DNA of 38,631 nucleotides from an uncultured Gammaproteobacteria bacterium (GCA_964360925.1 CAYHYP010000001.1:1-38631); one strand, 5' to 3'; positions 1-38,631 are shown, counted from the first letter of the stretch. Numbers and translations: made by a program. Notes: generated from the sequence alone by a model not told the origin.

Positions 1-1256
1 ACGCTTTTACTATTTTAATAGTAGGAGTTTGGCTTTCCAAAATGGTTTTGGCTAAGAAATTTATTTATAAACACACTTTTTTGGAAATCCCCTTACTTTT
101 ATATTTAGGCTCGCATATTTTATCCACGGCCTTTAGTATAGACCCGCACATTAGTATTTGGGGATATTATTCCCGCTTTCATGAAGGTTTGCTCGCGTCA
201 TTATCATATATTATTTTATATTTTGCCGCCGTTTCAAATTTAAATAAAGAGGATGTTAAAAAAATATTTTTGGCTTCTTTTGCTTCGGCCACAATTATTT
301 CCATATGGGGGGCTTTGGAACATTTTGGGCATTCCCCTTCATGTTATTTGGTCACCGGAAAATTTGGAGTGGATTGTTGGGTTCAGGACGTCAAAACCCG
401 GGTTTTTGCCACTCTTGGCCAACCAAATTGGATGGCAGCATACCTGTGCGTACAAATCCTAATTCTTATTGGATTTGTGCGCAAATTTAAAATTTTAAAT
501 TTTAAATTTAAAATAGATTCTATCACTCACTCCGTTCGTTCCAGAATGACGTTTTTATTCTTAATTATTTTATTTATTTCCGCTCTAATTTTTACCAAAT
601 CCCGTTCGGGATATGCGGGACTTGCCGCGGGGTTGGGAGTGCTTACTCTTTTGCTTTTAAAAATCAGCAACAAAATTAAATTATTTTTAGTTATTGCGGG
701 TTTAATTTTAGTTTCAGTTTTTGGTTGGAATTGGTACCAAAATCTCCCGGCCCCGGGTCCCGGAGTAACAAATTCCGAAGCCATCAGAAAACCTGTCTGG
801 GAAGGGGCCGTAAAAATTTGGCAGAGATATCCGGTTTTTGGCAGCGGGGTGGAAACTTTTGCTTATTCATTTTATCTGGACCGTCCGGCTTCTAAAAATT
901 TGGATTCCGAATGGGATTTTCTTTACAACAAAGCCCATAATGAGTATCTAAATTTACTTGCAACGACGGGAACGGTGGGAATAATTACCTATCTAATTGT
1001 CATTGGAACATTTATTTCGTGGGCACTCCGTCATTCGTCATCCTGGAGGGAGCCAGAGCGACCGATAGGATCTATTAAGAGAAAGATTCTATCGCCCTTC
1101 GGGCTCCAGAATGACGTAAGTATTTCGCTCCAGCATGACGCTTTATTTGCCGCATGGGTTTCAATTTTAGTCACCAATTTTTTTGGTTTTTCCATTGTCA
1201 TCATTGGGTTATATTTCTTTTTAATCCCTGCATTCTGTGAAATACTTTCTGATTAG
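1..1256 (+). CDS. O-antigen ligase / Wzy_C-family polytopic membrane protein (5' end probably outside window)
   Basis: Frame is open from the window edge to the ATG at 42. Many hydrophobic helices. Wzy_C-like motif NKAHNEYLNLLATTG. Carries an in-frame hairpin-repeat insert at 1030-1140. Confidence 0.7.
   Translation, partial: AFTILIVGVWLSKMVLAKKFIYKHTFLEIPLLLYLGSHILSTAFSIDPHISIWGYYSRFHEGLLASLSYIILYFAAVSNLNKEDVKKIFLASFASATIISIWGALEHFGHSPSCYLVTGKFGVDCWVQDVKTRVFATLGQPNWMAAYLCVQILILIGFVRKFKILNFKFKIDSITHSVRSRMTFLFLIILFISALIFTKSRSGYAGLAAGLGVLTLLLLKISNKIKLFLVIAGLILVSVFGWNWYQNLPAPGPGVTNSEAIRKPVWEGAVKIWQRYPVFGSGVETFAYSFYLDRPASKNLDSEWDFLYNKAHNEYLNLLATTGTVGIITYLIVIGTFISWALRHSSSWREPERPIGSIKRKILSPFGLQNDVSISLQHDALFAAWVSILVTNFFGFSIVIIGLYFFLIPAFCEILSD
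1030..1140. repeat. GTCAT-hairpin repeat cluster (fwd + rev + partial units), in frame in ORF 1-1256
   Basis: gtcatcctggag..gataggatc / gattctatcgcccttcgggctccagaatgac / ctccagcatgac. Translated SSWREPERPIGS..ILSPFGLQND..LQHD. Confidence 0.85.
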
Positions 1257-1827
1257 TTTAATATTTTTAACCGGGCTTTTTCTGGAATGGAATTTATATT
1301 TGCGTTGGCAAGCGGATATTTCCTATAACACCGGCAAAACTTTGAATGCCGATCAAAAAATGCTGGATGCATATCCATATTTAAATAGTGCCGTTGACGC
1401 TGTTCCGGACGAACCGACTTTTTTAAACGAACTTGCCTACAATCAAGCCGTTTTGGCGTCAGCCATTTTTGCTCAAACAAAAGAAGCTACTACTGTCGCC
1501 CAATTAACCCAACTCGCGATTGAAAATTCCAACAAAGCCGTCTCCATTTCTCCCAACTCTTTGCCTTTTTGGAAAGACCGTTTAAAAATATTTTTCCAAC
1601 TCTCCTCCATTGACGAAAAATATAATTCGGAAGTATTAACGGCCATAAACAAGGGTGAGACCCTTGCACCTACTGATGCTAAGGTACATTATCTTAAGGC
1701 ATGGATTTTGGAGCGGGCGGGAAAAACCGAGGAAGCCGTAAAAATATTACAGGAAACTTTAGTTTTAAAACCTGATTATTATGACGCAAAAATTCTTTTG
1801 GAAAAAATAGAAAAAACACAAAAATGA
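1237..1827 (+). CDS. TPR-like repeat protein with N-terminal transmembrane helix
   Basis: 196-aa ORF overlapping the previous stop by 20 nt. N-terminal hydrophobic helix. C-terminal TPR-like segment AKVHYLKAWILERAGKTEEAVKILQETLVLKPDYYDAKILL. Confidence 0.55.
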   Translation: MKYFLISLIFLTGLFLEWNLYLRWQADISYNTGKTLNADQKMLDAYPYLNSAVDAVPDEPTFLNELAYNQAVLASAIFAQTKEATTVAQLTQLAIENSNKAVSISPNSLPFWKDRLKIFFQLSSIDEKYNSEVLTAINKGETLAPTDAKVHYLKAWILERAGKTEEAVKILQETLVLKPDYYDAKILLEKIEKTQK

Positions 1828-3291: not shown

Positions 3292-4509
3292 ATGTTAAGA
3301 AAATTTGTATTTATTATTTCTATAATGAAAAAAATATTTTTGAAATCATTTTTATTTGCCGTCTTTATCATTATCTCTGGTGTATATTTTGCATCTCAAA
3401 TATCAGCAGCCGAATACCCCCTTTCATCGCTTGATGGAAAAGTAAAAACAGTATTTGACAGTAAATTTGGAGGGGGTATCACCAAAATCTATGATTTTGA
3501 CAACTTGGGTAATCAAAATCTTGTTTTGGATTCTCAAGCAGGAGCCATGTTTCAGAATGCTTTTTGGCTTGATCCCAAACATCTTAATCCTCCGTGGCCA
3601 GCGGGGTGTGCCGGTAATAATGACCAGTTGTGGAGCAATCCTACACAAGCGGGGTATATTTTTGATGGTTTGGCGGGAAACCCAATTGGAGTTTTTGGAA
3701 TTACCAATACTGCAGATCCGAAAGAATTTATCCGTTTAGAAGAGAACGGCAACAAGATTCACTTTAAATCACGATTTATTCGCTATGATTTTTGTTCTGG
3801 GCAAGCAACCACTGATTCACAAAAAGACTGGGATACTAATTTTTATGTTGAACAATGGGCAAGTTTTAGCCCTCAATTTTCACACACCCTTGTTTTAAAA
3901 ACAAAAATTTCATATGAGGGTGACTATTCCCAATGGGAGAACAGCGATACCGATACGGTGCACAACGGCCATCCAGTAACTAAACAGTGGCCTATTATCT
4001 TTGGTTTGAACTTGACACGAATTGCTTACATAAAAAATGGGGTTAAAACATTTGAATCAACTACCGATCACCATTTCGATCCTGATGGGAATTGGGCAGC
4101 CCTCCTTTCAAGTACAAAAGATACGGGTATCGGAATGATACTTGATGGTAAAGTTGTTCCCCGGCAGGGTGGAAAATTCGGAGGCGGTATAGGTTCAGGA
4201 AATCAGCCGGGTCATGGGGTTGTAAATTGGGGGTTTCTTTATCCCGGTCCCTGGCTTGATCTTAAACAATTTGGTACGTTGGTAAATGTTACTCCTGACG
4301 GTTGGGGAGGATACGCATATAAACCCGAGGGATATTTTGAGTGGACTGCTTATTACCCAATCGGAAGCCTAAGCATGATTGAACAAGTAGCTAATACCAT
4401 AGCTGCATCTCCCCTCCCCGGCGTGACTATTTCCAATTTGCGTTCCCTTTTTCAAAACTTTACAAATATTTTTGATTATAATAATTTGGTGGGGAATTTT
4501 GGGAAATAA
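3292..4509 (+). CDS. secreted protein of unknown function with conserved 26-aa C-terminal tail
   Basis: The track ORF starts at 3127 but overlaps the previous gene. Likely starts are ATG 3292 or 3325 (MKKIFLKSFLFAVFIIISGVYFASQISAAE signal peptide). Ends in ISNLRSLFQNFTNIFDYNNLVGNFGK. Confidence 0.7.
   Translation: MLRKFVFIISIMKKIFLKSFLFAVFIIISGVYFASQISAAEYPLSSLDGKVKTVFDSKFGGGITKIYDFDNLGNQNLVLDSQAGAMFQNAFWLDPKHLNPPWPAGCAGNNDQLWSNPTQAGYIFDGLAGNPIGVFGITNTADPKEFIRLEENGNKIHFKSRFIRYDFCSGQATTDSQKDWDTNFYVEQWASFSPQFSHTLVLKTKISYEGDYSQWENSDTDTVHNGHPVTKQWPIIFGLNLTRIAYIKNGVKTFESTTDHHFDPDGNWAALLSSTKDTGIGMILDGKVVPRQGGKFGGGIGSGNQPGHGVVNWGFLYPGPWLDLKQFGTLVNVTPDGWGGYAYKPEGYFEWTAYYPIGSLSMIEQVANTIAASPLPGVTISNLRSLFQNFTNIFDYNNLVGNFGK
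4429..4509 (+). other. conserved C-terminal tail motif (half-dockerin-like), copy 1
   Basis: ISNLRSLFQNFTNIFDYNNLVGNFGK*. Paralogous tails at 6331-6411 and 10122-10202, remnant at 7705-7758. Confidence 0.7.
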
Positions 4510-4510
4510 A

Positions 4511-5023
4511 ATGAAACAAATTAAAAGAGAAATTGTTTATGCCTTTATTGACAGTCAGAATTTGAATTTGGGAATTCAGGATCTTGGATGGCGGCTTGAT
4601 TTTAAAAAATTCAGAATATATTTAAAAGATAAATTTCGGGTTTCGAAGGCAATTATTTTTATCGGATATCTTAAGAATAATGAAGAGCTTTACAAAATGC
4701 TTCGTAATTTTGGGTACGAATTGGTTTTTAAACCAACTGTTAAGGATAAGTTTGGCAAAGTGAAAGGGAACGTTGATGCGGAAGTGGTTTTACACTCGGC
4801 AAATATTGAATATAACAATTATGACAAAGGAGTTTTTGTTTCCGGCGACGGTGACTTTTTTTGTCTGTACGAATTCTTATTGAAGAAAAACAAACTCGGA
4901 AGAATTTTAATTCCAAATAGAAATTCAGAATCGTCGTTACTTATAAAATTTCAGGATTATAAAATATTCTTGTTTAGAGATCGGGAGAAATTGGAGTTTA
5001 AAAATAAAAAGCGGGAGGCGTAG
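4511..5023 (+). CDS. NYN / LabA-like (PIN-fold) domain protein
   Basis: Start moved to ATG 4511 (MKQIKREIVYAFIDSQN), just after the previous stop. Pattern FIDxxN ... VSGDGDF is typical of NYN/LabA domains. Confidence 0.7.
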   Translation: MKQIKREIVYAFIDSQNLNLGIQDLGWRLDFKKFRIYLKDKFRVSKAIIFIGYLKNNEELYKMLRNFGYELVFKPTVKDKFGKVKGNVDAEVVLHSANIEYNNYDKGVFVSGDGDFFCLYEFLLKKNKLGRILIPNRNSESSLLIKFQDYKIFLFRDREKLEFKNKKREA

Positions 5024-5133
5024 CTATATGACACGTAGTCATATGGTCGTATTCTCCCTCGTGATTAGCTCTATTATATAGTACTTGGCAAGTAAGTCAA
5101 GAGGATATGTGCCGGATGTAACTTAACAAAATA

Positions 5134-6411
5134 ATGAAAAAAATATTATTATTTATTTTATTTTTTATTCTTATATCCCCACAACCAGTTTTGGCCTCGG
5201 TTGTTACCAATCGCACCGACGGCATCGCTCTTTTTAACAGCCAGCCATTTTTCCCCGTGGGGTTGTTTTATTGGTTTCCCAATGATAATCCCGCAGTTCC
5301 CACCGACCACTCCGGACAAATGCAAACTTTAAAAGACACTGGTTTTAATACGGTTTTTTTGGGAGGCAACAGAACTGATATATCTTATTTGGACCAGGCG
5401 CAGAATTTAGGATTAAAAGTGGTTAATTATAATGGTATATATAATAGTGATGCCAACTATATAAAAGCGATTGCTAATCACCCTTCTCTTCTTGCCTGGT
5501 ATGGAATTGACGAACCAAACTCAATTAATCTTTGCAACTGGAACCCAACAACAAAAACCTGCTCTTTTAACGATGCAAATCCAACCGTGAGTAATTTAAC
5601 AAATAAATATAACAGTCTTTGGTCAAACAATATTAACAACCATCCCATTTGGACAATTTATTCCATGGGGGAAACTAACGAACAGATTAAAGCCTGGCAC
5701 GAGTTGAGTAAATCATCTATTGGAGGAATTGATATCTATCCCGCAGTTTCGCAATTTACAAATTTCTGCGTTAAGAAAAATATTTCCTGTGTTGGAGAAA
5801 TGACTGACAAAGTGGTTGCTGCTCTTGGCAGCAATAAACCTGTTTGGATGGGGCTGCAGGGATTTACGACTTCACCTGAAGGCTATGGAGGAATCCCGCC
5901 TACATTAACTCAAACCCGTTTTATGGCTTATGATTCAATAGTCCACGGAGCAACGGGAATTTTTTGGTGGGATTATGATTTAAAAACTACTGATGATCTT
6001 TGGCGCAGTTTAAAACTTATGGTCACGGAATTGACAGATTCAAATATTAATCCTGCTTTGTTAGGAATCAATCGAACAATAACACAAAGCGGTCCGGTGA
6101 AAATATTATCAACTGCTGATGTCTCAGGGAAATATAAATATAAAATTGCCGTCAACGAAACAACACAACCCGCGGGAAACTATTCTATTTCCGGTTTTGC
6201 CCCCAATGCGGATGTTTTTGTTTTGGTGGAGAACCGCTGGCTCAAAGCTGATAACACAGGAGCTATCAATGACCGATTTGAGGACTGGTCCGTTCATCTC
6301 TACCGTCAGGAAATAATAAATATTGTGGACATTTCCGCCCTGCGTTCTCTCTTGCAAAACTTTACCACTATCTTTGACTATAATATTTTAGTGGGGAATT
6401 ACGGACGGTAA
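5134..6411 (+). CDS. secreted protein, possibly a TIM-barrel glycoside-hydrolase-like enzyme, with conserved C-terminal tail
   Basis: Signal peptide MKKILLFILFFILISPQPVLA. LLAWYGIDEPN resembles GH clan-A NEP-type motifs (weak). Ends in ISALRSLLQNFTTIFDYNILVGNYGR. Confidence 0.7.
   Translation: MKKILLFILFFILISPQPVLASVVTNRTDGIALFNSQPFFPVGLFYWFPNDNPAVPTDHSGQMQTLKDTGFNTVFLGGNRTDISYLDQAQNLGLKVVNYNGIYNSDANYIKAIANHPSLLAWYGIDEPNSINLCNWNPTTKTCSFNDANPTVSNLTNKYNSLWSNNINNHPIWTIYSMGETNEQIKAWHELSKSSIGGIDIYPAVSQFTNFCVKKNISCVGEMTDKVVAALGSNKPVWMGLQGFTTSPEGYGGIPPTLTQTRFMAYDSIVHGATGIFWWDYDLKTTDDLWRSLKLMVTELTDSNINPALLGINRTITQSGPVKILSTADVSGKYKYKIAVNETTQPAGNYSISGFAPNADVFVLVENRWLKADNTGAINDRFEDWSVHLYRQEIINIVDISALRSLLQNFTTIFDYNILVGNYGR
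6331..6411 (+). other. conserved C-terminal tail motif, copy 2
   Basis: ISALRSLLQNFTTIFDYNILVGNYGR*. Confidence 0.7.
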
Positions 6412-6448
6412 ACTTGACAAAATGCGGTTTCAGTTATAACATAATATT

Positions 6449-7027
6449 ATGCAAAGACTGAATTTGTTTAAGGTTCAACAAATACTTGGGAAGACCATAT
6501 TTACCCATCAGGATTTGGTGGCCGGTTTTGGAGTAAATAAGAGGGCGGTTGAGGCCTTTTTATCTTACAATTATCGAATGGGCAAGATTCAAAGGGTTCG
6601 TCGCGGTTTGTATTTTTTTACCGGTGAAACTATAGATACGTTTTCACTTGCCAACGTGATTTATGCCCCATCATACATTTCTTTAGAAACGGCGCTATCT
6701 TTTTATGGACTGATTCCGGAAGTTGTGTATAGCGTGACTTCAATTACGACAAGAACAACAAGGGAATTTGGTTTTAATGACATAAATTACAGTTACCAAT
6801 CAATAAAAACGGAGGCTTTTACCGGATATGTACCGATAGATAGAGATGGTATAAAAATTCTTATGGCTACCCCCGAAAAAGCCCTCGCGGATTATTATTA
6901 TTTTGTATCTTTAGGAAAGAAAACGGCAAATGATAGAATTAATATTGACAAAATAGATAAAAAAATTCTTAAAAATTATTTATCTTTATATGATCGACAA
7001 AAATTACTTGCAAACTATTGCCATTAA
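6449..7027 (+). CDS. AbiEi-family antitoxin / transcriptional regulator (type IV TA)
   Basis: Paralogous to 28068-28670 and 31888-32496 (shared PSYISLETALSFYGLIPE-type motif). Overlaps the downstream AbiEii-like gene. Confidence 0.7.
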   Translation: MQRLNLFKVQQILGKTIFTHQDLVAGFGVNKRAVEAFLSYNYRMGKIQRVRRGLYFFTGETIDTFSLANVIYAPSYISLETALSFYGLIPEVVYSVTSITTRTTREFGFNDINYSYQSIKTEAFTGYVPIDRDGIKILMATPEKALADYYYFVSLGKKTANDRINIDKIDKKILKNYLSLYDRQKLLANYCH

Positions 7028-7700
7028 AAACCAAACGACTTTTGATAATATTGCCAGAGAGTATCTTCAGCAATTATTTTTATCAATCTTCTATCAATTG
7101 CCGGGGAGCGAGAAATTTTTATTTAAAGGCGGGACCGCCTTACGCCTTATTTTTCGATCCCCGCGGTTTTCCGAAGACATCGATTTTTCGGTGACAGGCG
7201 AGATTTCGACATTTGAAAATATTCTCATAGATGTTCTTGAAGAACTTAAAAAAAATGACATCGATTGCCAATTAATAACCGCAGAAAAAACTACCGGCGG
7301 GTATATTGCAAAAATCTCGGCAAAGTTATACGACCAAAAATTTACCATATTATTTAATCTTTCTGAAAGAAGGAAAAAAACAGATAAAGGGGAGAGGAAC
7401 ACCATTACCGGGGATTATTTTCCGGCGTTCCCGGTTTCAATTTTAGAAAAAAAGAGTCTGATAAACGAAAAAATTGAAGCGCTTTTAATCCGTTCCAAGC
7501 CGCGTGACTTTTTCGACCTCTATTTTATTTTAAGATCAAATCTCTTATCAACCGCCGGGAAGGGAATTTTAAAAAAAGTTATCCCGGTCTTACAAAAAAC
7601 TAAACTTGATTTTAACCGGGAACTAAAAGTCTTTTTACCGAAATCCTACTGGCCCGTCATCAAAGATCTTAAAAGATTGTTGATGAATGAGATTGAATGA
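6990..7700 (+). CDS. AbiEii/AbiGii-family nucleotidyltransferase toxin
   Basis: FKGGTALRLIFRSPRFSEDIDFS nucleotidyltransferase motif. Gene order and overlap with AbiEi. Confidence 0.75.
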   Translation: MIDKNYLQTIAIKNQTTFDNIAREYLQQLFLSIFYQLPGSEKFLFKGGTALRLIFRSPRFSEDIDFSVTGEISTFENILIDVLEELKKNDIDCQLITAEKTTGGYIAKISAKLYDQKFTILFNLSERRKKTDKGERNTITGDYFPAFPVSILEKKSLINEKIEALLIRSKPRDFFDLYFILRSNLLSTAGKGILKKVIPVLQKTKLDFNRELKVFLPKSYWPVIKDLKRLLMNEIE

Positions 7701-7704
7701 AAAA

Positions 7705-7758
7705 AATAATAATATTTTTGATTATAATATCTTAGTGGGGAATTATGGGAAACTTTAA
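7705..7758 (+). pseudogene. orphan 3'-end remnant of a tail-motif gene
   Basis: Reads NNNIFDYNILVGNYGKL* in the 60-nt gap between the AbiEii gene and the ATPase gene. Near-identical at DNA level to the 3' ends of 3292-4509 and 5134-6411. Confidence 0.5.
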
Positions 7759-7760
7759 GT

Positions 7761-9044
7761 CTATGCTAACAACCATTCAATTACCGGTTTGGCGGGGGAA
7801 TTGCCGTCGAGACCAATCTCTTTATCAAGATACAAAACAACCCCTTTGGAATCAAGATGTTTTTTGACAAGCTCTAAATTGCCAAACTCCCGTTTTGAAT
7901 TATTTTCATTTAAGGACAGGCACACTTGAAAGGCCAAATAGTGGTCATCTTTATTTATTAAAAAATCGACTTCATAACCGTTTTCTTCCTGCCCAAAATA
8001 AATATTCTCCCGACCATATCTTCTTACTAATTCATTGTAAACCAAATTTTCCAGCCTTTTTTCCTTATTTTCTTCCCGTCCCGGAATAAAAATATTGTCG
8101 ACCAAATAGTATTTAGCCGTCCGGTTAAAAACCCTGCTTAATTTGTAATCAAATTTGGTAAGTTTCTCCAAAGCATAGGCACTTGTCCAGTAACGCAGGT
8201 AATTTTCAATGGTAGTGGGGGCCACCGATAAACCCTGTTCTTCAAGCCGTCCCACAATCCGGCGCAGGGAAAGGGTCGAAGTGATATTCCCGCGCACGAA
8301 CGAAAAAGTTTCCTTGAGCAGATTTACATTATCAATGTTATATCTTTTAATAATGTCATCAAGAATGATTTTTTGGACAAGACCCTCGCTATAATTTGCC
8401 GCCAGGGAATCTTTAAGGTTAAATTGTTCACAAAGGCCGCCGCGTTGAAGGTAAATTGCAAAAGCTGAATCAATGGCACTTTTTTGGGAGTAATAATCAT
8501 TGTGATCCAATTTTAAATATTGCAGATATTCAGTGAAACTAAACGGTTTTACTTCAAGGTTGAGGCTTCGTCCGGAAAGGCTGGAACTTAATTCTCCGGA
8601 CAAAAGTTGGCTATTGGAACCGCTGATGAAAATATTGTATTTTCCCTGTTCATAGAGAGTGCGAACCAGCTTTTCCCAGTTTTTCACCATCTGGATTTCA
8701 TCCCAAAAAATATAGATTGGCTTGTTGACGTTCGCCAATTCTCTTAAATAAATTTCCCAAATATGGCGCAGATCGCTTACGGTTTTAATATTTTGCAACA
8801 AATCATTTTCGAAATTGAGATAAAAAATATTTTCCACGGCAAGCCCTTTTTCAATTAGGGATTTAGAGAGCATTTTAAGAAGAAATGACTTGCCGGAACG
8901 GCGAAATCCCACAACCGCCTTAATGAGCCGACTTTTACTGCCTTGGGAAAGCCAAGAAAAGTAATCATTTCTGGAGACCGGCACGGTTGTGCCAAGATCA
9001 CGAGATTCAGCTATGGCCTGTCTTAATTCTTGTACGGAAATCAT
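7761..9044 (-). CDS. AAA-family ATPase (AAA_14 + DUF4143-like architecture)
   Basis: Walker A GFRRSGKS, Walker B IYIFWDEIQ, 427 aa. Confidence 0.75.
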   Translation of the reverse strand: MISVQELRQAIAESRDLGTTVPVSRNDYFSWLSQGSKSRLIKAVVGFRRSGKSFLLKMLSKSLIEKGLAVENIFYLNFENDLLQNIKTVSDLRHIWEIYLRELANVNKPIYIFWDEIQMVKNWEKLVRTLYEQGKYNIFISGSNSQLLSGELSSSLSGRSLNLEVKPFSFTEYLQYLKLDHNDYYSQKSAIDSAFAIYLQRGGLCEQFNLKDSLAANYSEGLVQKIILDDIIKRYNIDNVNLLKETFSFVRGNITSTLSLRRIVGRLEEQGLSVAPTTIENYLRYWTSAYALEKLTKFDYKLSRVFNRTAKYYLVDNIFIPGREENKEKRLENLVYNELVRRYGRENIYFGQEENGYEVDFLINKDDHYLAFQVCLSLNENNSKREFGNLELVKKHLDSKGVVLYLDKEIGLDGNSPAKPVIEWLLA

Positions 9045-9104
9045 AACTTGATGTTATCATCTTTGTACGACACTGTCAAGCATTTATTTGCTATACTTAA
9101 TCAG

Positions 9105-12829: not shown

Positions 12830-12835
12830 AATATT

Positions 12836-25045: not shown

Positions 25046-25169
25046 GTCATTCTGGAGCCCGAAGGGCGATAGAATCTTTTTATCAGAATAGATCCTAGTG
25101 GCGAAGCCGCGAGCTTGCTCATCACTCGCTTCGCTCGTTCCAGGATGACGAAAAAATTACAGAATGACG
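25046..25169. repeat. GTCAT-hairpin cluster filling the secE-nusG intergenic region
   Basis: gtcattctggagcccgaagggcgatagaatc + gatcctagtggcgaagccgcgagcttgctcatcactcgcttcgctcgttccaggatgacg + partial cagaatgacg. Confidence 0.9.
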
Positions 25170-26344: not shown

Positions 26345-26447
26345 GTCATTCCGGCGAAGGCCGGAATCTCTCGCGCCCTGCCTGCCGGCAGGCAGGAATG
26401 CGAGTTCCCAAACAAGTTGGGAGATGCTGAAACAAGTTCAGCATGAC
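26345..26447. repeat. GTCAT-hairpin cluster including the 20-bp palindrome, rplK-rplA intergenic region
   Basis: gtcattccggcgaaggccggaatc..cctgcctgccggcaggcagg..gagatgctgaaacaagttcagcatgac. Confidence 0.9.
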
Positions 26448-29806: not shown

Positions 29807-30280
29807 ATGCCAAAAGAAAAAAATATCCAGTCTGTTGCCAAAATCAAAGAAAAATTATCCCGTGCCAAGGGCGTGGTTTTGACGGATTATCAGGGGCTGA
29901 CTCACAAACAACTTGAGCAATTGCATTTGGCTTTGAAAAATGTTGGCGCGGAATATTTGGTGGTAAAAAATAGTTTACTAAAAATTGCTTCTGCAGAGAT
30001 GCTGAAACAAGTTCAGCATGACACAATTATTGGTCCAACGGCAGCTCTTTTTTCTTTTGACGATACCTTGTCCCCGCTTAAAGAACTTTTTAAATTTATA
30101 AAAGCCAATGCCTTGCCAAAAGTTAAAAGCGGAAATATTGACGGAAAAACTTACGAAGCCGCGGAGTTGGCAGTTTTGGCCGCTTTGCCTTCAAGAAACG
30201 ATCTCATTTCACAACTTATGTATACACTTAATGCGAATACACAGAAACTGGCTTATCTTTTGACACAAATTAAAAAATAA
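29807..30280 (+). CDS. rplJ: 50S ribosomal protein L10 with short repeat-derived insertion
   Basis: KEKLSRAKGVVLTDYQGLTHKQLEQLHLALKNVGAEYLVVKNSLLKIA. Upstream of rplL. Confidence 0.9.
   Translation: MPKEKNIQSVAKIKEKLSRAKGVVLTDYQGLTHKQLEQLHLALKNVGAEYLVVKNSLLKIASAEMLKQVQHDTIIGPTAALFSFDDTLSPLKELFKFIKANALPKVKSGNIDGKTYEAAELAVLAALPSRNDLISQLMYTLNANTQKLAYLLTQIKK
29998..30022. repeat. single hairpin unit, in frame in rplJ
   Basis: gatgctgaaacaagttcagcatgac. Translated (E)MLKQVQHD. Confidence 0.85.
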
Positions 30281-30286: not shown

Positions 30287-30366
30287 GTCATTCTGGAACG
30301 AGCGAAGCGAAGTGATAGAATCTATTTTTAGAAAGATCCTATCGCCCTTCGGGCTCCAGGATGACG
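30287..30366. repeat. fwd + rev unit pair filling the rplJ-rplL intergenic region
   Basis: gtcattctggaacgagcgaagcgaagtgatagaatc .. gatcctatcgcccttcgggctccaggatgacg. Confidence 0.9.
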
Positions 30367-30774: not shown

Positions 30775-30799
30775 GTCATCCTGAACTTGTTTCAGGATC
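30775..30799. repeat. single hairpin unit 3 nt after the rplL stop
   Basis: gtcatcctgaacttgtttcaggatc. Confidence 0.85.
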
Positions 30800-31887: not shown

Positions 31888-32496
31888 TTAGCCTGCAATT
31901 GGAATTCGTGGAATCAAAGACCAAATCTTAGGAAATTTTCTTATATTAGCCATTTTCGCATAAAGAGCCAATTTTTTCCGATCAATTATAGAAAAATCCA
32001 TTTCATCAAAATCTTGACCCCTCAACCCTTTATTCCCAAAATAAATATAGTCAATAAGCGCTTTTTCAGGGGAAGCAATCAGAAAATTTTTGTCTTTTTC
32101 CATTCCAAAATAAAGCGCGGGGGCAATCTGTGAATAATTAAATTCTCTCCCCTGGCACTTAAAAGTCCGCGGCTTTTTGACCGTAATTGAAGTTGTCCCG
32201 TATGGAAAACCTGTAATAATTCCATAATAAGACAAAGCTGATTCAAGAGAAACATAAGATTGTGGATAGAGGAAATTGGCAATCTCATAATCAGCCGTGG
32301 TACTGTTATTTAAAATAAATAGATACTTGCCTTTGACAAGAAATTCAATAACCCCGTCTTTTTCCAATCGCTGAATCTTCTTATATAAAGTTTGGGCGTT
32401 TTTTATGGCAAACAACCTACGGAAATCTGCCAGAGAAAAAACTGATATATTTCTTTTTTGTAAAGTTTTGATAATTTCAAGCGTAGACGTTTCCAT
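31888..32496 (-). CDS. AbiEi-family antitoxin / transcriptional regulator (apparently orphan)
   Basis: QSYVSLESALSYYGIITGFP motif. Only a 61-aa ORF (31713-31898) sits where the toxin should be. Confidence 0.7.
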   Translation of the reverse strand: METSTLEIIKTLQKRNISVFSLADFRRLFAIKNAQTLYKKIQRLEKDGVIEFLVKGKYLFILNNSTTADYEIANFLYPQSYVSLESALSYYGIITGFPYGTTSITVKKPRTFKCQGREFNYSQIAPALYFGMEKDKNFLIASPEKALIDYIYFGNKGLRGQDFDEMDFSIIDRKKLALYAKMANIRKFPKIWSLIPRIPIAG

Positions 32497-32816: not shown

Positions 32817-32866
32817 CCAATCTTCCAATATCCAATTTTTCAATTTCCAATAACCAATGACCAATT
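32817..32866. repeat. CCAAT-type heptamer tandem tract (flank of four-helix-bundle gene)
   Basis: CCAATCT TCCAATA TCCAATT TTTCAAT TTCCAAT AACCAAT GACCAAT. Confidence 0.7.
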
Positions 32867-33222
32867 TATTTTGAGGATTTTATTAGGATAGAACTAACGA
32901 TTGCTTCAATTTCCTGGCCCTCTTTTATTAACGGCTCCATACGTTTTGAATAACCTGGATTCGTAGCAGAAATCATTTTTAACCAATAATTTGTCTCCTT
33001 TGTTTCTTTTTTAACAACCGTAAAACTATTCACAAACTGTTTTTTACTAGTAGACCCGTCTGCTTCTTGACCATTTGCTCCCATGGAAGTTGCTGATCTG
33101 GAGATTTGGTTAACAAAACCTAAATTTTGAACAGTCTTTGGAAGAACTTTTGTTAAATTTACTACACGTACAACAAAATCAAATATTCTATTGTGAATGT
33201 CAAAATCAGCCATATATTTCAA
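32866..33222 (-). CDS. four-helix-bundle protein (23S rRNA IVS protein family)
   Basis: SATSMGANGQEADGSTSKKQFVNSFTVVKKETKETNYWLKMI. The track start 33222 is TTG; ATG 33213 (MADFDIHNRIFDF) is likelier. Confidence 0.85.
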   Translation of the reverse strand: MKYMADFDIHNRIFDFVVRVVNLTKVLPKTVQNLGFVNQISRSATSMGANGQEADGSTSKKQFVNSFTVVKKETKETNYWLKMISATNPGYSKRMEPLIKEGQEIEAIVSSILIKSSK

Positions 33223-33368
33223 TCAATCCAATCATCCAATTCCCAATTATTCAATATCCAATCAACCAATTTCCAATATTTCAATTGGTCATTGAGAATT
33301 GGATATTGATTAGTATTGGCTATTGGTCATTGGTTTTATTGATGTTGGTCATTAGTTGATTGATTTTG
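33223..33368. repeat. CCAAT heptamer tract switching to inverted ATTGG/TTGGTCA heptamers (long imperfect palindrome)
   Basis: CCAAT-phase repeats run to ~33284, then ATTGGTCATTGAGAATTGGATATTGATTAGTATTGGCTATTGGTCATTGG.... Overlaps the last ~10 codons of galT. Confidence 0.7.
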
Positions 33369-34457
33369 TGAAATTCCCTCTTTGTACTCCTCCGCTGCTG
33401 TTTTTGGATCTACAATATTGACCAATATCCCCGTCCCCAGTTCAAAACCGGCCCGGTGAATAAACCGCGGAATAATCCGCAAATACCAATTTTGTCCGTG
33501 ATAAATATAAAAGTTGTAAGGGATGTCTGTTTCGTCATTCTGGAGCGAAGCGATGAACGAGCTCGAGGCTTCGCCACTAGCATCTGTTTTGGAAGATCCT
33601 ATCGGGCTTTGCCCTCCAGGATGACCACGTTTAAATTTATTTACAATTGCTTTTAATATTTTTTGTAAAACTACTGCCAGATCTGAAATTTGATCGTCTG
33701 TAATATGACCAAAGGTAGATTCTATCGGTCGCTTTGCTCCCTCCAGAATGACGTCATGCTGGAGCGAAGCGATAGCATCTTCTCTTGGAGTAATCCACAC
33801 CTCATATGGCCATTCCGAATAATCCGGGCAATAAGCTGTGAACTGTGAACTTTGCATTACTACGTTTGCTACCGGTTCCCGAACAATGTTTTCCACGGAA
33901 ATTTCCGGTGGCACCACTACTACTTGTGAATGCGGATGCTCCAACGACGCCCCCGCGTGAATATCGTGATTGTTAAAAATCAAAACGGTTCCAAACCTCT
34001 TATTATAGTTATATCTCTGCCTGTAAGTCTGCAAAATCAGTTCCACTTGTTTTAAGGGCAACTCGTCAATGTCCTTCTCGTGATCGGGACTATGGATAAT
34101 AACCTCATGAAACTCCGTCAAGGGGTATTTATTTGTGATAACACGAATTAACCAGTTAGAAGATCCTATCGCCCCGCCGCGGCGGGGCTCCAGGATGACG
34201 TCATTCTGGAGGGCGGAGCCCGATAGAATCTTTTTACCAGAATAGATCCTAGCGGCAAAGCCGCGAGCTTGCTCATCACTCGCTTCGCTCGTTCCAGGAT
34301 GACGTATGACAAACACTTCCTTATTTAACCTCTCGTTTCCGGGGCAAAATGGGCAACTATTTTGTGGGTGAGCCACACTATCATGCGGCCTTGTGACCCG
34401 TGCCGGGGCAATAATTACAAACTTATTTCCTTTGATATTATGTCTAAAATTTGCCAC
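33336..34457 (-). CDS. galT: galactose-1-phosphate uridylyltransferase (HIT family) with three repeat-derived insertions
   Basis: GTG start. CPFCPGNE zinc motif, EHPHSQVVVVP (HxHxQ) active site. Confidence 0.85.
   Translation of the reverse strand: MANFRHNIKGNKFVIIAPARVTRPHDSVAHPQNSCPFCPGNERLNKEVFVIRHPGTSEASDEQARGFAARIYSGKKILSGSALQNDVILEPRRGGAIGSSNWLIRVITNKYPLTEFHEVIIHSPDHEKDIDELPLKQVELILQTYRQRYNYNKRFGTVLIFNNHDIHAGASLEHPHSQVVVVPPEISVENIVREPVANVVMQSSQFTAYCPDYSEWPYEVWITPREDAIASLQHDVILEGAKRPIESTFGHITDDQISDLAVVLQKILKAIVNKFKRGHPGGQSPIGSSKTDASGEASSSFIASLQNDETDIPYNFYIYHGQNWYLRIIPRFIHRAGFELGTGILVNIVDPKTAAEEYKEGISQNQSTNDQHQ
33534..33625. repeat. GTCAT-hairpin cluster, in frame in galT (C-terminal part)
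   Basis: gtcattctggagcgaagcgatgaacgagctcgaggcttcgccactagcatc .. gatcctatcgggctttgccctccaggatgac. Confidence 0.85.
33718..33779. repeat. rev + fwd unit pair, in frame in galT
   Basis: gattctatcggtcgctttgctccctccagaatgac-gtcatgctggagcgaagcgatagcatc. Confidence 0.85.
34162..34304. repeat. three-unit cluster, in frame in galT (N-terminal part)
   Basis: gatcctatcgccccgccgcggcggggctccaggatgac-gtcattctggagggcggagcccgatagaatc..gatcctagcggcaaagccgcgagcttgctcatcactcgcttcgctcgttccaggatgacg. Confidence 0.9.
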
Positions 34458-34504: not shown

Positions 34505-34581
34505 GGCGTGGGCCCGGCAGGTTTGCTAGATTGGATTGATACCCCAAATCTACGGGGCTCAACTCCCCGCGGGTCCACGCC
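34505..34581 (+). ncRNA. candidate structured RNA (77 nt, tRNA-sized, 12-bp closing stem); strand uncertain
   Basis: GGCGTGGGCCCG (34505-34516) pairs with CGGGTCCACGCC (34570-34581) with 1 mismatch. Internal hairpins GCA-GGTT-TGC and CGGGG-CTCAACT-CCCCG. No family recognised. Confidence 0.3.
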
Positions 34582-34704: not shown

Positions 34705-35103
34705 CTATTCCTGCGTTTGGCTAAATTTTTCCCACGACCTTGCCAGGTGCATCACTTTCCAGCGGCAAGTTGAAAGAGAATTTATTTGCTCCTCAAAAAA
34801 TTCCAACTCTATATCTTTATTCTCTATATCTCTATATTGATCCAGATATACTATTAATATATTAATCCCTAACATCACATCTTCCAAAATCTCAATGGCT
34901 CTTTTTTTGTCTGAAAACCTGACACTGTGCGCCCTGGCAATTTTAACGGGCAGTTCCAATGCAATTGCCCGTAAAGACGCACAATTGTGCGTCTCTACAA
35001 TACGTTTCGCCACGGCAACAGAAACTGCCAATAATTTTTGGTAAACCTCCAAATCCTGGAAACTTTTGATCGGCCGCCTGGGTGAAAATTTTTGATATGA
35101 CAT
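34705..35103 (-). CDS. divergent four-helix-bundle-like protein
   Basis: N-terminal FQDLEVYQKLLAVSVAVAKRI resembles the family's f.dL.vwqka helix 1. The rest is diverged. Confidence 0.5.
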   Translation of the reverse strand: MSYQKFSPRRPIKSFQDLEVYQKLLAVSVAVAKRIVETHNCASLRAIALELPVKIARAHSVRFSDKKRAIEILEDVMLGINILIVYLDQYRDIENKDIELEFFEEQINSLSTCRWKVMHLARSWEKFSQTQE

Positions 35104-35114: not shown

Positions 35115-35237
35115 GTCATTCTGGAGCCCTTTTCCGTCATGCTGGAGCGCAGCGATAGCATCTTCTTTTGTTTTTAGATAGATCCTATCGGTCGTTTCAC
35201 TCCCTCCAGGATGACGGTGTCAGGCTTCCAGGATGAC
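35115..35237. repeat. cluster spanning the 35104-35173 intergenic region and the 3' end of 35174-36811
   Basis: gtcattctggagccc.. gtcatgctggagcgcagcgatagcatc .. gatcctatcggtcgtttcactccctccaggatgac .. ttccaggatgac. Confidence 0.85.
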
Positions 35238-36811
35238 ACACTGGTTGGTCTTATACTATCAATTTTATCACTATTTTTATTGACTAAATAAGTCCCTTCG
35301 TCCGTCTCTACTTTGCGGCGGCGGATGGCTTTTTTGGGTTTATGTAAAACATGGAGAGGATAAAATTCAAAATAATCTTTTTCGTCAAACCAGGCGCATT
35401 TAAATTCAAAGAGGCGTAACCCGGTCAATCTGGATAAAGCCATAGCATACAGTGTCAATTGTTCAATCGGCCGCTCTTTTTCGGCGTTAGGTTTAAAGTC
35501 CAAAAGATGAATCATCCCGTTTCTAATTTGCACAAAATCAATATGGCCGGTAATCAATTTTGGTAATTTGTCATGCTGGAGCGTCTCTGCGTCATTCTGG
35601 AGCGAAGCGATAGAATCTATTTTTTCGTTGGAAGATCCTATCGTCCCGCTTAGCGGGACTCCAGGATGACGCTGAAATATCTCAAATCCCAGTTGGCTCT
35701 TCATATGTTCCAAATCGTCCCGCGTCAAATACACCGGCACTTCCGTGGCGACAGTGACAGAATCGTTATAAAGCATAAATTTTTGCAAAATCTCATGGCG
35801 GTTTTTTCTCTCTTTTGCCCCCTGCAAAACAAACGCCGCCAATTTTGTGGCGTAATTGGTTTTTCCCCGGACGATCATGGCTGTTTTGGAAAATGCCAGC
35901 GGCGTTTCCGAAGCCCGTTCTCCCTGGTTAAAATACTGATGTGGACACTCCCCCGGCACCATTTCCAAAAACTCCACCAGCGGAGTAAAAAGCCGGTGAT
36001 GGAAATTTTCCTGCATAATAAGCCTGCATTTTGCCCGGTGAAATCTGAATCTGTAAAGTTGCCGGTGCGCCAAAGTGGCGGTGATTATCATGTCTGTTGG
36101 TTTATATTTTTGCATGGCAAAATCCCGCATTCTTAAAAACGGCAAATCGTCTTTAAATTCCGTGATCCAACTTGATAAAGTTGATGGATTTATTGATAAC
36201 GTGTCATGCTGGAGTGTCCCCCCTGCGTCATTCTGGAGGGCGGAGCCCGATAGAATCTTTTTACCAGAATAGATCCTAGCGGCAAAGCCGCGAGCTTGCT
36301 CATCGCTCGTTTCACTCGCTCCAGGATGACGAACGGCAGGGCTCCAGGATGACGCATGGGCGTTCACCCTCCTACAACTCTCCTCCAGCGAATATCCCAA
36401 ATTATAAAGTGAAATGGCGTCAAAAATGGTAGCCAGAGGATAATGTTTTCCGGAAACGGAATGCGGAGTAAAAGTTTTGTGACAATCTTTGCAAATATAA
36501 AGTTGTACATTCTCCCGTTTTTTAATCCGCAGTCCCCGTCTGACAAAATTTTTATTTAAACAATACGGGCAACAAAATGTGTCAACAATAGGTCTAATTG
36601 TCATCCCAGACAAGCTGGGAGATGCCGGATCGAGTCCGGCATGACACAGTGTCATTCCGGCCTCCGAGCCGGAATCTATACTCGTGTCATCCTGACGAAT
36701 GTCAGGATCTCTCAACTTGTTTGAGTCACTCGCATTCGCGAGAGATCCCGAAACAAGTTCGGGATGACGCTTATTCAATAATTTTTTAATCCCTTCAAAC
36801 ATATTTTTCAT
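35174..36811 (-). CDS. Zn-ribbon + PD-(D/E)XK-nuclease-like protein, heavily invaded by hairpin repeats
   Basis: CCPYCLNKNFV..YICKDCHKTF zinc ribbon. C-terminal GHIDFVQ..IHLLDFKPN resembles a D...(D/E)xK nuclease motif. Four repeat clusters. Alternative start ATG 36604. Confidence 0.55.
   Translation of the reverse strand: MKNMFEGIKKLLNKRHPELVSGSLANASDSNKLRDPDIRQDDTSIDSGSEAGMTLCHAGLDPASPSLSGMTIRPIVDTFCCPYCLNKNFVRRGLRIKKRENVQLYICKDCHKTFTPHSVSGKHYPLATIFDAISLYNLGYSLEESCRRVNAHASSWSPAVRHPGASETSDEQARGFAARIYSGKKILSGSALQNDAGGTLQHDTLSINPSTLSSWITEFKDDLPFLRMRDFAMQKYKPTDMIITATLAHRQLYRFRFHRAKCRLIMQENFHHRLFTPLVEFLEMVPGECPHQYFNQGERASETPLAFSKTAMIVRGKTNYATKLAAFVLQGAKERKNRHEILQKFMLYNDSVTVATEVPVYLTRDDLEHMKSQLGFEIFQRHPGVPLSGTIGSSNEKIDSIASLQNDAETLQHDKLPKLITGHIDFVQIRNGMIHLLDFKPNAEKERPIEQLTLYAMALSRLTGLRLFEFKCAWFDEKDYFEFYPLHVLHKPKKAIRRRKVETDEGTYLVNKNSDKIDSIRPTSVSSWKPDTVILEGVKRPIGSI
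35570..35671. repeat. cluster in frame in 35174-36811
   Basis: gtcatgctggagcgtctctgc-gtcattctggagcgaagcgatagaatc..gatcctatcgtcccgcttagcgggactccaggatgacg. Confidence 0.85.
36203..36354. repeat. cluster in frame in 35174-36811
   Basis: Same unit series as 34200-34304, plus flanking partial units. Confidence 0.9.
36600..36769. repeat. cluster including composite element copy C, at the 5' end of 35174-36811
   Basis: gtcatcccagacaagctgggagatgccggatcgagtccggcatgac..gtcattccggcctccgagccggaatc..copy C (36686-36769). Confidence 0.9.
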
Positions 36812-37059: not shown

Positions 37060-37106
37060 GTCATTCTGGAGCCCGGAGGGCGATAGAATCTTTTTACCAG
37101 GATGAC
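37060..37106. repeat. intergenic unit plus partial unit
   Basis: gtcattctggagcccggagggcgatagaatctttttaccaggatgacg. Confidence 0.85.
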
Positions 37107-37237: not shown

Positions 37238-37263
37238 AAAAAGCTCTCGCAAGAGAGCTTTTT
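37238..37263 (-). terminator. rho-independent terminator of the tail-fibre-like gene
   Basis: AAAAAGCTCTC-GCAA-GAGAGCTTTTT, immediately after the stop at 37263-37265. Confidence 0.7.
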
Positions 37264-38631
37264 CATTGGCAAACTCCTTTCGTTCTTATAATCTCCCCAT
37301 TATTTATTTGTACACAATAATCATCTCCCGTAGTTTTGTCTTTCAAAATAATCCCCTTCTCCACCCGCAATTGACCGGAAACGGTGGCATCGCCCAAAAT
37401 GGAAACCGTGCCCGTTAATGATGAAATTTCCGCTTTCAAATCATCAAAATGTAGCAGTCCAACTTGGAGACTGCCACCAATAGAAGTATTTGCCAACTGG
37501 GTAGTCCCCACCACTTTCAAACTTTCGGTAAAATTGGCAAATTGGGCGGAAATAGTTGCCACATCAATATTTGTCCAATTGGATAAATTGGGCAGATTTG
37601 TCAAATTTGTTAAGACCGCGGAATTTGATGCGGTGTCATGCTGAACTTGTTTCAGCATCCCCGATTGACTCGCCATCTCCACTTTCAACAATTCAATTTC
37701 AGTTTGGATTTGAGGAATTAGAGATAATTTTGTAGAAATATCTTGTGTCATTCTGGCCGAGTCCAGAATCATTCCTGAAATACTGGCAATCATGTCATTC
37801 TGGAGCGAAGCGATAGAATCTATATCACGAATTGCGATGGTCAATATCTCACGAGTTTGCAAATTCCGGGCATTTCCTTCTGAAATCGTGAGATTTAACA
37901 GGCCTGAAATTGACGCATTGTCATCCTGAACTTGTTTCAGGATCCCATCCAATTCTTTGATTCCGGCAATGGCATATGGAATTACATTTGACGCATTAAG
38001 TCTTAAGAACCCGTCTGGCCCCGTAGAAACACTGTCAGGGAAGATTTGTTGAAAATCCTGGGCAATGAAACCATAGTGCTCAATATTGGCGATTTCCGGG
38101 TGGGCGGAGAGATATTCGGCGGTATATTTAAACTGCGAGGGCTTTAACTGCGAAATCAGAGCCAAAGCGTTGGGTATAATTTCAATGTCTTGTTTGACAC
38201 GGGCGTCGGAGGTGTTGGTCCATAAAGTTCCGGTTGAAAGTCCGGCGGTTCCGACCACATCTAATTTATGACCGGGGTTAGTCGTCCCGATGCCGACGTT
38301 GCCCGTGGTTGTTATTCTGACCCTTTCCGCTGGTCCTGAAACACCATCAAACGGAGCAAAATAAATATCACCAGTATTAGCCGTGTTCTCATTATCCATC
38401 CCGATGATACTATTTCTGTTCGTTGAACCACCTGTAGTTCGAAGTACTAACTCTACACGCAAATCATTGGTTGCCCCAGCCGTGCTAACCAGCCCGCCAA
38501 TAACTCCATTTTCTAATCCAGTTGTAGCATCTGTATCTTGAACAACCAATTTCCACCCCGGTGCCGTCGTCCCGATGCCGACGTTGCCTTCGATTATCAT
38601 CCCTGACGTTGGCGCAGCTATTGAACCATAT
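37263..38631 (-). CDS. tail-fibre-like / surface fibre protein with S74-type intramolecular chaperone domain (5' end outside window)
   Basis: Frame stays open to the window edge. Repeated GNVGIGTT(A/N)PG.KL(V/D)V. SDARVKQDIEII..HYGFIAQDFQQIFPDSV matches the endosialidase-chaperone (SDxRxK) pattern. C-terminal region carries repeat inserts. Confidence 0.7.
   Translation of the reverse strand, partial: YGSIAAPTSGMIIEGNVGIGTTAPGWKLVVQDTDATTGLENGVIGGLVSTAGATNDLRVELVLRTTGGSTNRNSIIGMDNENTANTGDIYFAPFDGVSGPAERVRITTTGNVGIGTTNPGHKLDVVGTAGLSTGTLWTNTSDARVKQDIEIIPNALALISQLKPSQFKYTAEYLSAHPEIANIEHYGFIAQDFQQIFPDSVSTGPDGFLRLNASNVIPYAIAGIKELDGILKQVQDDNASISGLLNLTISEGNARNLQTREILTIAIRDIDSIASLQNDMIASISGMILDSARMTQDISTKLSLIPQIQTEIELLKVEMASQSGMLKQVQHDTASNSAVLTNLTNLPNLSNWTNIDVATISAQFANFTESLKVVGTTQLANTSIGGSLQVGLLHFDDLKAEISSLTGTVSILGDATVSGQLRVEKGIILKDKTTGDDYCVQINNGEIIRTKGVCQ
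37635..37659. repeat. single hairpin unit in frame in the tail-fibre-like gene
   Basis: gtcatgctgaacttgtttcagcatc. Confidence 0.85.
37747..37820. repeat. two units in frame in the tail-fibre-like gene
   Basis: gtcattctggccgagtccagaatc ... gtcattctggagcgaagcgatagaatc. Confidence 0.85.
37920..37944. repeat. single hairpin unit in frame in the tail-fibre-like gene
   Basis: gtcatcctgaacttgtttcaggatc (identical to 30775-30799). Confidence 0.85.

Follow-up and report, generated by a model that had tools for sequence, protein, structure and literature searches.

The 38,631-nt stretch of DNA analysed here in full (CAYHYP010000001.1:1-38631; "the window") belongs to a candidate-phyla-radiation (CPR) bacterium with a gene-dense, small genome, and carries numerous hairpin repeats headed by GTCAT. 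These repeats are probably hairpins of the NTS and "Ssn-related motif" (SRM) type, with their inverted doublets being non-autonomous and spread by an Ssn-type nuclease encoded elsewhere, and with the surviving copies within genes lying in frame. A preliminary description, made from the sequence alone, had found no described family to which the repeats could be assigned; however, their GTCAT-palindrome-ATC frame is that of the published NTS/SRM motif, and units of the types found in the window flank ssn-type genes elsewhere.

NTS (CGTCATTCCCGCGMAVGCGGGAATCYRG, 28 nt) is an extension of the Neisseria repeat dRS3 (PMC11893778; Nat Commun 2025;16:2388), and SRMs were defined as its degenerate relatives in the same report (PMC11893778). 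As described there, SsnA is a single-domain GIY-YIG protein of 94 aa that binds and cuts NTS as single-stranded DNA (ssDNA) only, with cutting confined to the GTCAT strand and occurring upstream of the hairpin; the GTC is required for cleavage, and the C located 3′ of the palindrome for binding (PMC11893778). Cleavage that is specific for both ssDNA and strand has been reported for the Neisseria and Wolbachia enzymes, and ssn genes are typically bracketed by the motif, in the order NTS-ssnA-NTS (PMC11893778). The same report lists Rickettsia among the genomes containing >300 SRMs (PMC11893778).

Unit architecture, census and pairing

Every GTCAT/ATGAC site of the window was read, yielding 24 clusters that cover 2,093 nt, or 5.4% of the window—close to the at least 25 clusters, roughly 2 kb and about 5% counted by hand in the preliminary description. 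The clusters comprise about 46 full units and about 14 half-units, with both strands used about equally. The anchor GTCATNCTGGAGC, with at most one mismatch, occurs 34 times in the window versus 0.04 times expected from shuffles, and GTCATNCTGAA occurs 9 times versus 0.07 expected. All units have a fixed GTC before a palindrome starting with AT, and a fixed C behind it. The GTCAT head is invariant in all window units and matches the HGTCWY start of the published SRM pattern; the C right after the palindrome (...AT-C) is invariant in the short-type alignment, in which G4, T5, C6 and C27 do not vary, and in every unit listed. The base preceding GTCAT is T in the short type and C in the long type, with a single G exception at 33625.

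The short type, TGTCAT-X-C(Y)G..-loop-..-X′-ATCTC, is a simple hairpin with an 8-bp stem (for example, GTCATGCTGAACTTGTTTCAGCATC). The long type, CGTCAT-X-CTGGAG-(G+C hairpin)-CGATAG-X′-ATC, has two tiers: on the GTCAT strand, a 5-bp ATXCT/AGX′AT stem leads through a G-T pair and a tandem G·A/A·G mismatch to a clamp of G+C pairs, in many cases around a GNA triloop. Counted across genomes, 43 different 5′ arms occur in this inner clamp, and a GNA triloop is closed in 97 of 195 units, most commonly as GCGAAGC. Mini-hairpins of the d(GCGAAGC) type are classic DNA hairpins of unusual stability. Half-units, 19-24 nt in length, consist of GTCAT, the 5′ stem arm and a C-rich tail of 8-11 nt, and stutter at doublet ends, 19-24 nt upstream of full units. 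The four subfamilies distinguished earlier are all present, and the one then called the "long form" is an ordinary long-type unit holding a nested 24-nt module, GAGCAAGCTCGCGGCTTYGCCRCT. This module, composed of two mini-hairpins, has six copies (15480-15503, 25097-25120, 26607-26630, 33555-33578, 34251-34274 and 36278-36301) and always lies between the GAT and AGX′ATC of a long-type unit, which suggests a small element inserting into the hairpin itself.

The clusters and half-units are as follows, with L118, L199 and L200 being relatives and L083 a Saccharibacteria metagenome-assembled genome (MAG), all taken up below:

514-550, minus strand: one long-type unit, in frame within gene 42-1256 (O-antigen ligase, Wzy_C); lacking in the L118 orthologue.
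1030-1139: inverted doublet flanked on the outside by half-units, also in frame within the Wzy_C gene; likewise lacking in the L118 orthologue.
14530-14664: 135-nt (45-codon) doublet with outer half-units, inside the peptide deformylase gene 14170-14850.
15474-15536, minus strand: long-type unit holding the nested 24-nt module, in frame within gene 15279-16196 (methionyl-tRNA formyltransferase).
19651-19736: short-type composite of a unit and an inverted unit with two small hairpins between them, in frame within gene 19201-20232 (alpha/beta hydrolase, minus strand); 90-91% identical to copies at 22662 and 36685.
21463-21531: short-type doublet with half-unit, intergenic.
22664-22749: short-type composite, intergenic, downstream of a Mur ligase gene.
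25046-25168: long-type doublet with half-unit, intergenic, upstream of nusG; absent from L200.
26345-26447: short-type composite between the L11 and L1 genes, with palindrome CCTGCCTGCCGGCAGGCAGG nested within; the L11-L1 spacer in L200 is 6 nt.
26578-26711: long-type doublet with half-unit, in frame within ribosomal protein L1, in its N-terminal region.
29998-30022, minus strand: one short-type unit, read in frame as "MLKQVQHD" within ribosomal protein L10; absent from L199 and L200.
30287-30365: long-type doublet, intergenic, between the L10 and L7/L12 genes; the spacer is 96 nt in the window versus 48 nt in L200.
30775-30799, plus strand: single short-type unit just behind the L7/L12 gene; folding energy (dG) -6.1, z -3.4.
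33534-33625: long-type doublet including the X/X′ mismatch unit, in frame in the GalT-like gene 33336-34457 (minus strand).
33718-33779: head-to-head long-type pair (ATGAC abutting GTCAT), in frame in the GalT-like gene.
34162-34310: three long-type units, in frame in the GalT-like gene; absent from L200.
35115-35237: long-type doublet with half-units, overlapping the 3′ end of open reading frame (ORF) 35174-36811 and supplying its stop codon.
35570-35670: long-type doublet with half-unit, in frame in ORF 35174-36811.
36203-36353: long-type doublet with two half-units, in frame in ORF 35174-36811.
36600-36768: five short-type units in an array, in frame within ORF 35174-36811 and close to its N-terminus.
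37060-37106, plus strand: long-type unit followed by a truncated inverted partner, intergenic.
37635-37659, plus strand: one short-type unit, in frame within gene 37263-38600 (tail-fibre-like, with a Peptidase_S74 domain; minus strand).
37747-37820, plus strand: a short-type unit and a minimal long-type unit of 27 nt, GTCATTCTGGAGCGAAGCGATAGAATC, in frame within gene 37263-38600; identity to the hairpin beside the L083 GIY-YIG gene is 96.5%.
37920-37944, plus strand: single short-type unit, in frame in gene 37263-38600.
Half-units, plus strand: 1030, 14538, 35115, 35570 and 36203.
Half-units, minus strand: 1139, 14664, 25168, 26711, 35237 and 36353.

Head-to-tail and head-to-head arrays, as originally described, are both seen, and the idea of one hairpin superfamily with a GTC...C frame and compensatory stems is borne out by census and covariation alike. 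In the 17 window copies of the short type, 99.3% of stem cells pair, and four of the eight stem pairs have changed on both sides (23 cells). This level of pairing was reached by none of 500 column shuffles, and sliding the register abolishes it. The changes lead from one Watson-Crick pair to another, with no G-T intermediates. In the long type, X and X′ are complementary in all 11 exact window matches and in 133 of 139 matches of other genomes, versus ~53% expected from marginal base frequencies; the sole mismatch unit, already singled out in the preliminary description, starts at 33534 (ATTCT...AGCAT). Both types are inverted repeats of 20-50 nt with a compensatory stem, as are SRMs, and the doublet in the peptide deformylase (def) gene folds as one long hairpin (dG -33 kcal/mol, z -5.3). 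The earlier inference that the hairpin form of the repeat matters is sound.

As to whether that hairpin acts in ssDNA or in RNA, which was initially left open, the evidence points to ssDNA, because the stem changes are Watson-Crick only, units lie in both orientations relative to genes, and the characterised nuclease binds ssDNA but neither RNA nor double-stranded DNA (PMC11893778). That the repeats are RNA-level elements—terminators, mRNA-stability hairpins or small RNAs (sRNAs) selected for their RNA fold—is very unlikely. The G-T position and tandem G·A pairs of the long type do read like RNA motifs, some copies lie directly behind genes (30775), and the Rfam model of the Francisella sRNA FtrB (RF02748), which matches window positions 36641-36809 weakly, contains an SRM-type hairpin (GTCATTCCCGCGTAGGCGGGAATCTC). 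However, Rfam at the gathering threshold recognised only four tRNAs in the window and no family for the hairpins, with sub-threshold, chance-level matches alone being added at a permissive threshold; moreover, most units are within coding sequence, in either orientation to the host gene, and the short-type stems lack wobble intermediates. For individual intergenic copies, an RNA-level function is possible.

Orientation relative to transcription, a comparison proposed earlier, was also examined. The GTCAT (cleavable) strand is the template strand in seven of seven isolated units in window genes (516-550, 15474-15536, 29998-30022, 37635, 37747, 37794 and 37920), but the ratio in other genomes is 30:21, and the bias is not convincing.

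Copied doublets and ssn-type GIY-YIG genes

The largest self-matches in the window are whole doublets, consisting of a unit, a spacer of 12-18 nt and an inverted unit, usually with a half-unit outside each end. The blocks 34199-34304 and 36226-36331, located in two unrelated genes, are 96% identical over 106 nt; 25044-25150 and 26577-26689 are 94% identical over 113 nt; and the short-type composites at 19650, 22663 and 36685 show 86-91% mutual identity. Inverted doublets with varied spacers are also common in loci from other phyla. The doublet stands to the single unit as REPIN stands to REP, in another family, and the doublets carry terminal inverted repeats of the kind expected of MITEs. Half-unit stutter was likewise found beside ssn genes of other hairpin subtypes (L127, L160, L171 and L182), and half-units may be the footprint of a copying reaction.

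A very improbable alternative is that the hairpins are passive target or recombination sites that are not themselves copied, comparable to dRS3 for the IS110-family recombinases of filamentous phages. dRS3 is reported to be a documented phage integration target (PMC11893778; PMC2212043), and its core logic is common to the window hairpins. Passive sites, however, leave unexplained both the 100-nt doublets copied at 94-96% identity into unrelated genes and the absence of units from orthologous sites, and no integrated element or recombinase adjoins any window cluster.

The family is widespread. In a species-level scan (one genome per species) with the pattern GTCATNCTGGAGC-N(4-24)-GATAGNATC, the long type was found in >115 stretches among the matches listed, from many phyla, including Fibrobacter, many CPR lineages, Gammaproteobacteria MAGs, Clostridia, Cloacimonadota, Chloroflexota, Bacteroidales and one archaeal bin, compared with 2 stretches in 2.9 million viral contigs.

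A candidate enzyme came from L083, in which long-type units bracket an ORF of 97 aa matching PF01541 only (E = 2.7e-12). The family of this GIY-YIG protein has 4,467 matches of ~95 aa each, with members being 60-70% identical across CPR, Burkholderiales, Elusimicrobia, Syntrophaceae and PVC bacteria. When metagenomes were scanned with the alignment of this family, 80 loci were obtained, in 73 of which a GTC-AT-hairpin-C is located no more than 250 nt from the GIY-YIG gene; the hairpin is present on both sides of the gene in 60, usually as plus upstream and minus downstream. The hairpin subtype differs by locus—for example, the NTS-like ATTCCCGC-GAAG-GCGGGAAT and the very common ATTGC-GAGCGAAGCGAA-GCAAT—and several of the genes are flanked by canonical NTS (GTCATTCCCGCGAAGGCGGGAATCCA). 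Flanks of the window types were also found, the long type in L119 and L121 (the latter also from Hainich groundwater) and the short type in L163, L185 and L197. Compared with window short units, the hairpins on the flanks of the L185 gene show 100% identity over 26-28 nt; compared with window long units, those at L083 show 96.5% identity over 29 nt. The whole unit in L121, ~380 bp, runs hairpin, CAGTATT, ssn, AATACTG and inverted hairpin, and is wedged between two genes. A PDB search with the GIY-YIG family returned distant UPF0213 and UvrC matches only.

Within the window, Pfam and NCBIfam searches on essentially all ORFs of at least 80 aa, a GIY-YIG regular expression and a phmmer scan revealed no mobilising enzyme: there was no RAYT/Y1 or other transposase, with an IS1/IS1595 zinc-finger N-terminus being the only transposase-like part. 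The preliminary description had proposed a search for a RAYT-like mobilising enzyme; the idea of an associated enzyme stands, but not its class, with GIY-YIG genes being what lies beside the hairpins. REP/BIME or REPIN elements maintained by a RAYT, a Y1 HUH transposase, are a very unlikely explanation. In form, the window repeats do resemble REP, REPIN and BIME, being short hairpins that share a fixed tetranucleotide at the 5′ end and that occur in inverted doublets and mosaic arrays, and the likeness of logic to REP/BIME and to Rickettsia palindromic elements (RPEs) noted at the outset holds. However, the gene bracketed in other genomes encodes a GIY-YIG nuclease rather than a Y1 transposase, none of the window ORFs has a transposase domain, and the conserved head is GTCAT rather than the GTAG-type head carried by REP families.

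In-frame copies and empty sites

A position inside coding genes, overlooked in the preliminary description, is the rule in the window: 16 of the 24 clusters run in frame through real genes, with the hosts being supported by Pfam, one more supplies a stop codon, and seven are intergenic. The O-antigen ligase gene contains two clusters; those for peptide deformylase (Def), methionyl-tRNA formyltransferase (fmt), the alpha/beta hydrolase, L1 and L10 contain one each; the GalT-like and the Peptidase_S74 tail-fibre-like genes contain three each; and the gene for a zinc-finger protein contains three in addition to the cluster providing its stop codon. All ORFs are intact across the coding clusters. 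The zinc-finger ORF (35174-36811, minus strand, 545 aa) has no recognisable part other than an IS1/IS1595-type N-terminal zinc finger.

The clearest comparison concerns def. Relative to the empty site, which reads GAATATCAG directly followed by GATGAA in L116, the window gene has 135 extra bases (14530-14664), and the corresponding site in L118 is likewise empty. The encoded protein is 226 aa in length, compared with ~181 aa for the majority of 4,850 homologues; in the alignment, an insert of 45 residues falls between two conserved strands, and the Pfam match is split in two by it. In the AlphaFold model, the insert is an unstructured loop, with pLDDT <50 for residues 128-165, and the flanking strands are modelled confidently over most of their length. 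Elsewhere, the syntenic 12.5-kb nusG-L11-L1-L10-L7/L12-...-GalT locus of L200, a more distant relative, contains zero units and lacks every corresponding window cluster, coding and intergenic. Empty sites were found in L116, L118, L199 and L200, and all checkable clusters are absent from the relatives' orthologues. L199, although 90% identical, lacks the L10 unit, and a similar unit (EILKQVQDD) is present in the same loop of a 62%-identical relative. Presence in frame, empty sites and a disordered loop make the behaviour of the def insert RPE-like, and the RPE-like behaviour extends to fmt, wzy, L1, L10 and GalT.

Several further observations concern these insertion sites. The empty def site (TCAGGATGAA; TCAG followed by GATGAA) is identical at 8 of 10 positions to the element terminus CCAGGATGAC, and in several further Def homologues this loop holds other inserts, of the RHSG type. 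The L10 gene of L199 (105-572) has, at the site of the short hairpin, a heptamer run, TCCAGTCTCCAGTCTCCAGTATCCAGT, which resembles the CTCCAG end of long-type units; this L10 loop seems to be a hot spot.

Adaptation of the clusters to translation was considered and rejected, since clusters do not exceed shuffled sequences in their number of open frames. Survivorship is thus the best reading of frame-keeping: only gene-preserving copies remain, which implies that they are translated. It is likewise highly improbable that the peptides (RHPGASE..., ...LQND, MLKQVQHD) are selected protein modules to which the DNA repeat is secondary, even with sixteen clusters translated in frame: unrelated peptides arise from the same DNA, which is used in more than one frame and on either strand, seven sites are intergenic, the pairing constraint falls on the DNA rather than on codons, and the Def insert is predicted to be disordered. 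Finally, repeats are prone to misassembly in metagenomes, but an assembly or chimera artefact, named earlier as what might refute the repeats, can be dismissed, since L117, a 95%-identical contig from an independent Hainich groundwater assembly, has the same def and fmt inserts and the ORFs run unbroken across all coding clusters.

Two other repeats are also found in frame. A perfect 20-nt palindrome, CCTGCCTGCCGGCAGGCAGG, read as "LPAGRQ", is located at 15350-15369, 19566-19585 and 26377-26396, with 10 pattern matches versus 0.02 expected; its fmt copy is absent from the L118 orthologue, and the Def homologue P0033, from another lineage, contains "DLPAGRQ". An A/T-only repeat, AATTTTAAATTT..., is in frame in two unrelated genes as KFKILNFKFK and NFKFQILNFK (483-516 and 19297-19330), with 12 matches versus 0.27 expected.

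With respect to the surroundings, an 11-kb accessory island (~3300-14150; NYN, AbiEii, AAA_14/DUF4143 and cohesin-like genes) contains no hairpin cluster; elsewhere in the window, clusters occur about once every 1.1 kb. The island lies between a 204-aa ORF and def, which are adjacent to each other in L118; either the hairpins spread before the island arrived or the island is very recent. The window also contains three AbiE-type toxin-antitoxin modules (AbiEii at 6990-7700, 18291-18965 and 27274-28071; AbiEi at 28068-28670 and 31888-32496) and two 23S_rRNA_IVP (23S-rRNA-intervening-sequence-protein) genes (14888-15253 and 32866-33222). A tRNA-like fold at 34510-34576 (plus strand), between the GalT-like gene and ORF 34705-35103, scores 26 bits, below threshold, with the Rfam mascRNA-menRNA model, and is not called by ARAGORN.

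Proposed mode of spread and comparison with known systems

We infer the manner of spread as follows. An Ssn-type nuclease encoded elsewhere in the genome would act on hairpins extruded from ssDNA; the doublets would be non-autonomous, REPIN/MITE-like derivatives of the hairpin-ssn-hairpin unit, and their spread would depend on this nuclease. In a small, gene-dense genome, persistence would be limited to copies that preserve the reading frame and fall within tolerant loops, where they would be translated as disordered peptide inserts, as with RPEs.

Several points weigh against this account. The 38.6-kb window contains no ssn or other GIY-YIG gene, a span too short to speak for the genome. The putative kinship of the CPR-type GIY-YIG family to SsnA/cd10448 is argued from protein size, the presence of one domain only and flanks of canonical NTS. 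The regular expression published for SRMs, HGTCWYN(0-2)YYVSBRHN(0-5)WNVSBRGN(0-2)RNCYNB, fits only one of about 46 units (26344), the stems of the others being A/T-richer or two-tier; the expression, derived from 29 genomes, serves as an aid to searching and does not define the family. By nearest-neighbour folding, the minimal long unit is barely stable (dG -1.4); this model gives no credit to tandem G·A pairs or GNA loops, and folding energies of single long units are therefore uninformative as evidence. Empty sites, sought in the preliminary description as a means of defining the target, were found, but a consistent target or duplication was not: the inserts examined have no consistent target-site duplication, with none at def or galT, and the sole candidate is a 9-nt direct repeat at the fmt insert; insert boundaries are blurred by the divergence of the relatives. 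No paper has shown Ssn mobilising hairpins, its published role being to restrict incoming ssDNA during transformation. Furthermore, the 11-kb island free of copies indicates that spread may not be ongoing.

A wider proposal is offered tentatively, as one that is possible but rather doubtful: that Ssn-type GIY-YIG genes and their hairpins constitute an unrecognised class of ssDNA-hairpin mobile element, with REPIN-like doublets mobilised in trans, that they have colonised essential genes in DNA-scavenging CPR bacteria, where they serve gene by gene as a barrier to or modulator of recombination, and that half-unit stutter is the footprint of their copying. If so, each colonised gene would carry cut sites for the cell's own ssDNA nuclease, forming a barrier to, or modulating, recombination with incoming DNA. 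Ssn and SRMs were described only in 2025, and the window is a natural test bed for their role outside Neisseria and for the multiplication of the hairpins: its ~5% hairpin density, the blocks copied into unrelated genes at 94-96% identity, the clean empty sites of relatives and the ssn-bracketing sequences are the kind of evidence expected of hairpins that are copied and not merely conserved. In addition, the repeat-derived inserts in CPR proteins (Def, Fmt, L1 and L10) bear on annotation, alignments, phylogenies and structure prediction, and the two-tier hairpin is a candidate new specificity class for ssDNA-cutting tools.

Already known are dRS3 (since 2000), NTS/SRM with Ssn (since 2025) and in-frame palindromic inserts in Rickettsia (PMC10969869, PMC2229807). 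A literature search gave no relevant match to the unit sequences and none for palindromic repeats in CPR bacteria. As far as these searches reach, what appears new is the two-tier hairpin class with its relatives missed by the published pattern, the anatomy of doublet, half-unit and nested module, the ~5% density in a CPR genome, the colonisation of essential genes and direct evidence, at the sequence level, of hairpin copying.

Among known systems, REP/REPIN/BIME elements are similar in that their hairpins, as singlets or inverted doublets, lie beside a single domesticated nuclease gene on which they depend, and in the recognition of ssDNA hairpins, but their enzyme is a Y1 HUH rather than a GIY-YIG protein, their head motif differs and they are extragenic. 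As in MITEs, the doublets are short and non-coding, with terminal inverted repeats (GTCATNCTGGAGC at both ends) resembling the ends of a gene-carrying parent; unlike in MITEs, there is no consistent target-site duplication, and the parent is not a recognised insertion-sequence family. RPEs are likewise palindromic repeats of ~100-150 nt in frame in genes of a small genome, forming tolerated peptide segments (PMC10969869, PMC2229807), but have no enzyme assigned in the literature consulted, and the likeness here is one of behaviour and not of sequence family. With dRS3/NIME, the window repeats share mosaic arrays and the logic of the 20-bp AT-started palindrome ATTCCC-N8-GGGAAT, the core of NTS, with the unit GTCATTCCGGCGAAGGCCGGAATC being a close analogue; the exact core is found in none of the window units, the nearest being ATTCCGGC-GAAG-GCCGGAAT, the stem sequences differ, and dRS3/NIME have been described between or around genes rather than in frame inside them. 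Compared with NTS/SRM themselves, the window units mostly fall outside the regular expression, lie in frame in genes of a CPR host and have no ssn gene in the window, and the two-tier GGAGC...GATAG hairpin, half-unit doublets and nested 24-nt module are not described in the available text of that report. What is shared is the GTC-AT...AT-C frame on a hairpin, directionality, very high copy number, wide phylogenetic spread and, at the loci of other genomes, the hairpin(+)-gene-hairpin(-) arrangement around a single-domain GIY-YIG gene of ~95 aa and the subtype-specific pairing of hairpin with nuclease.

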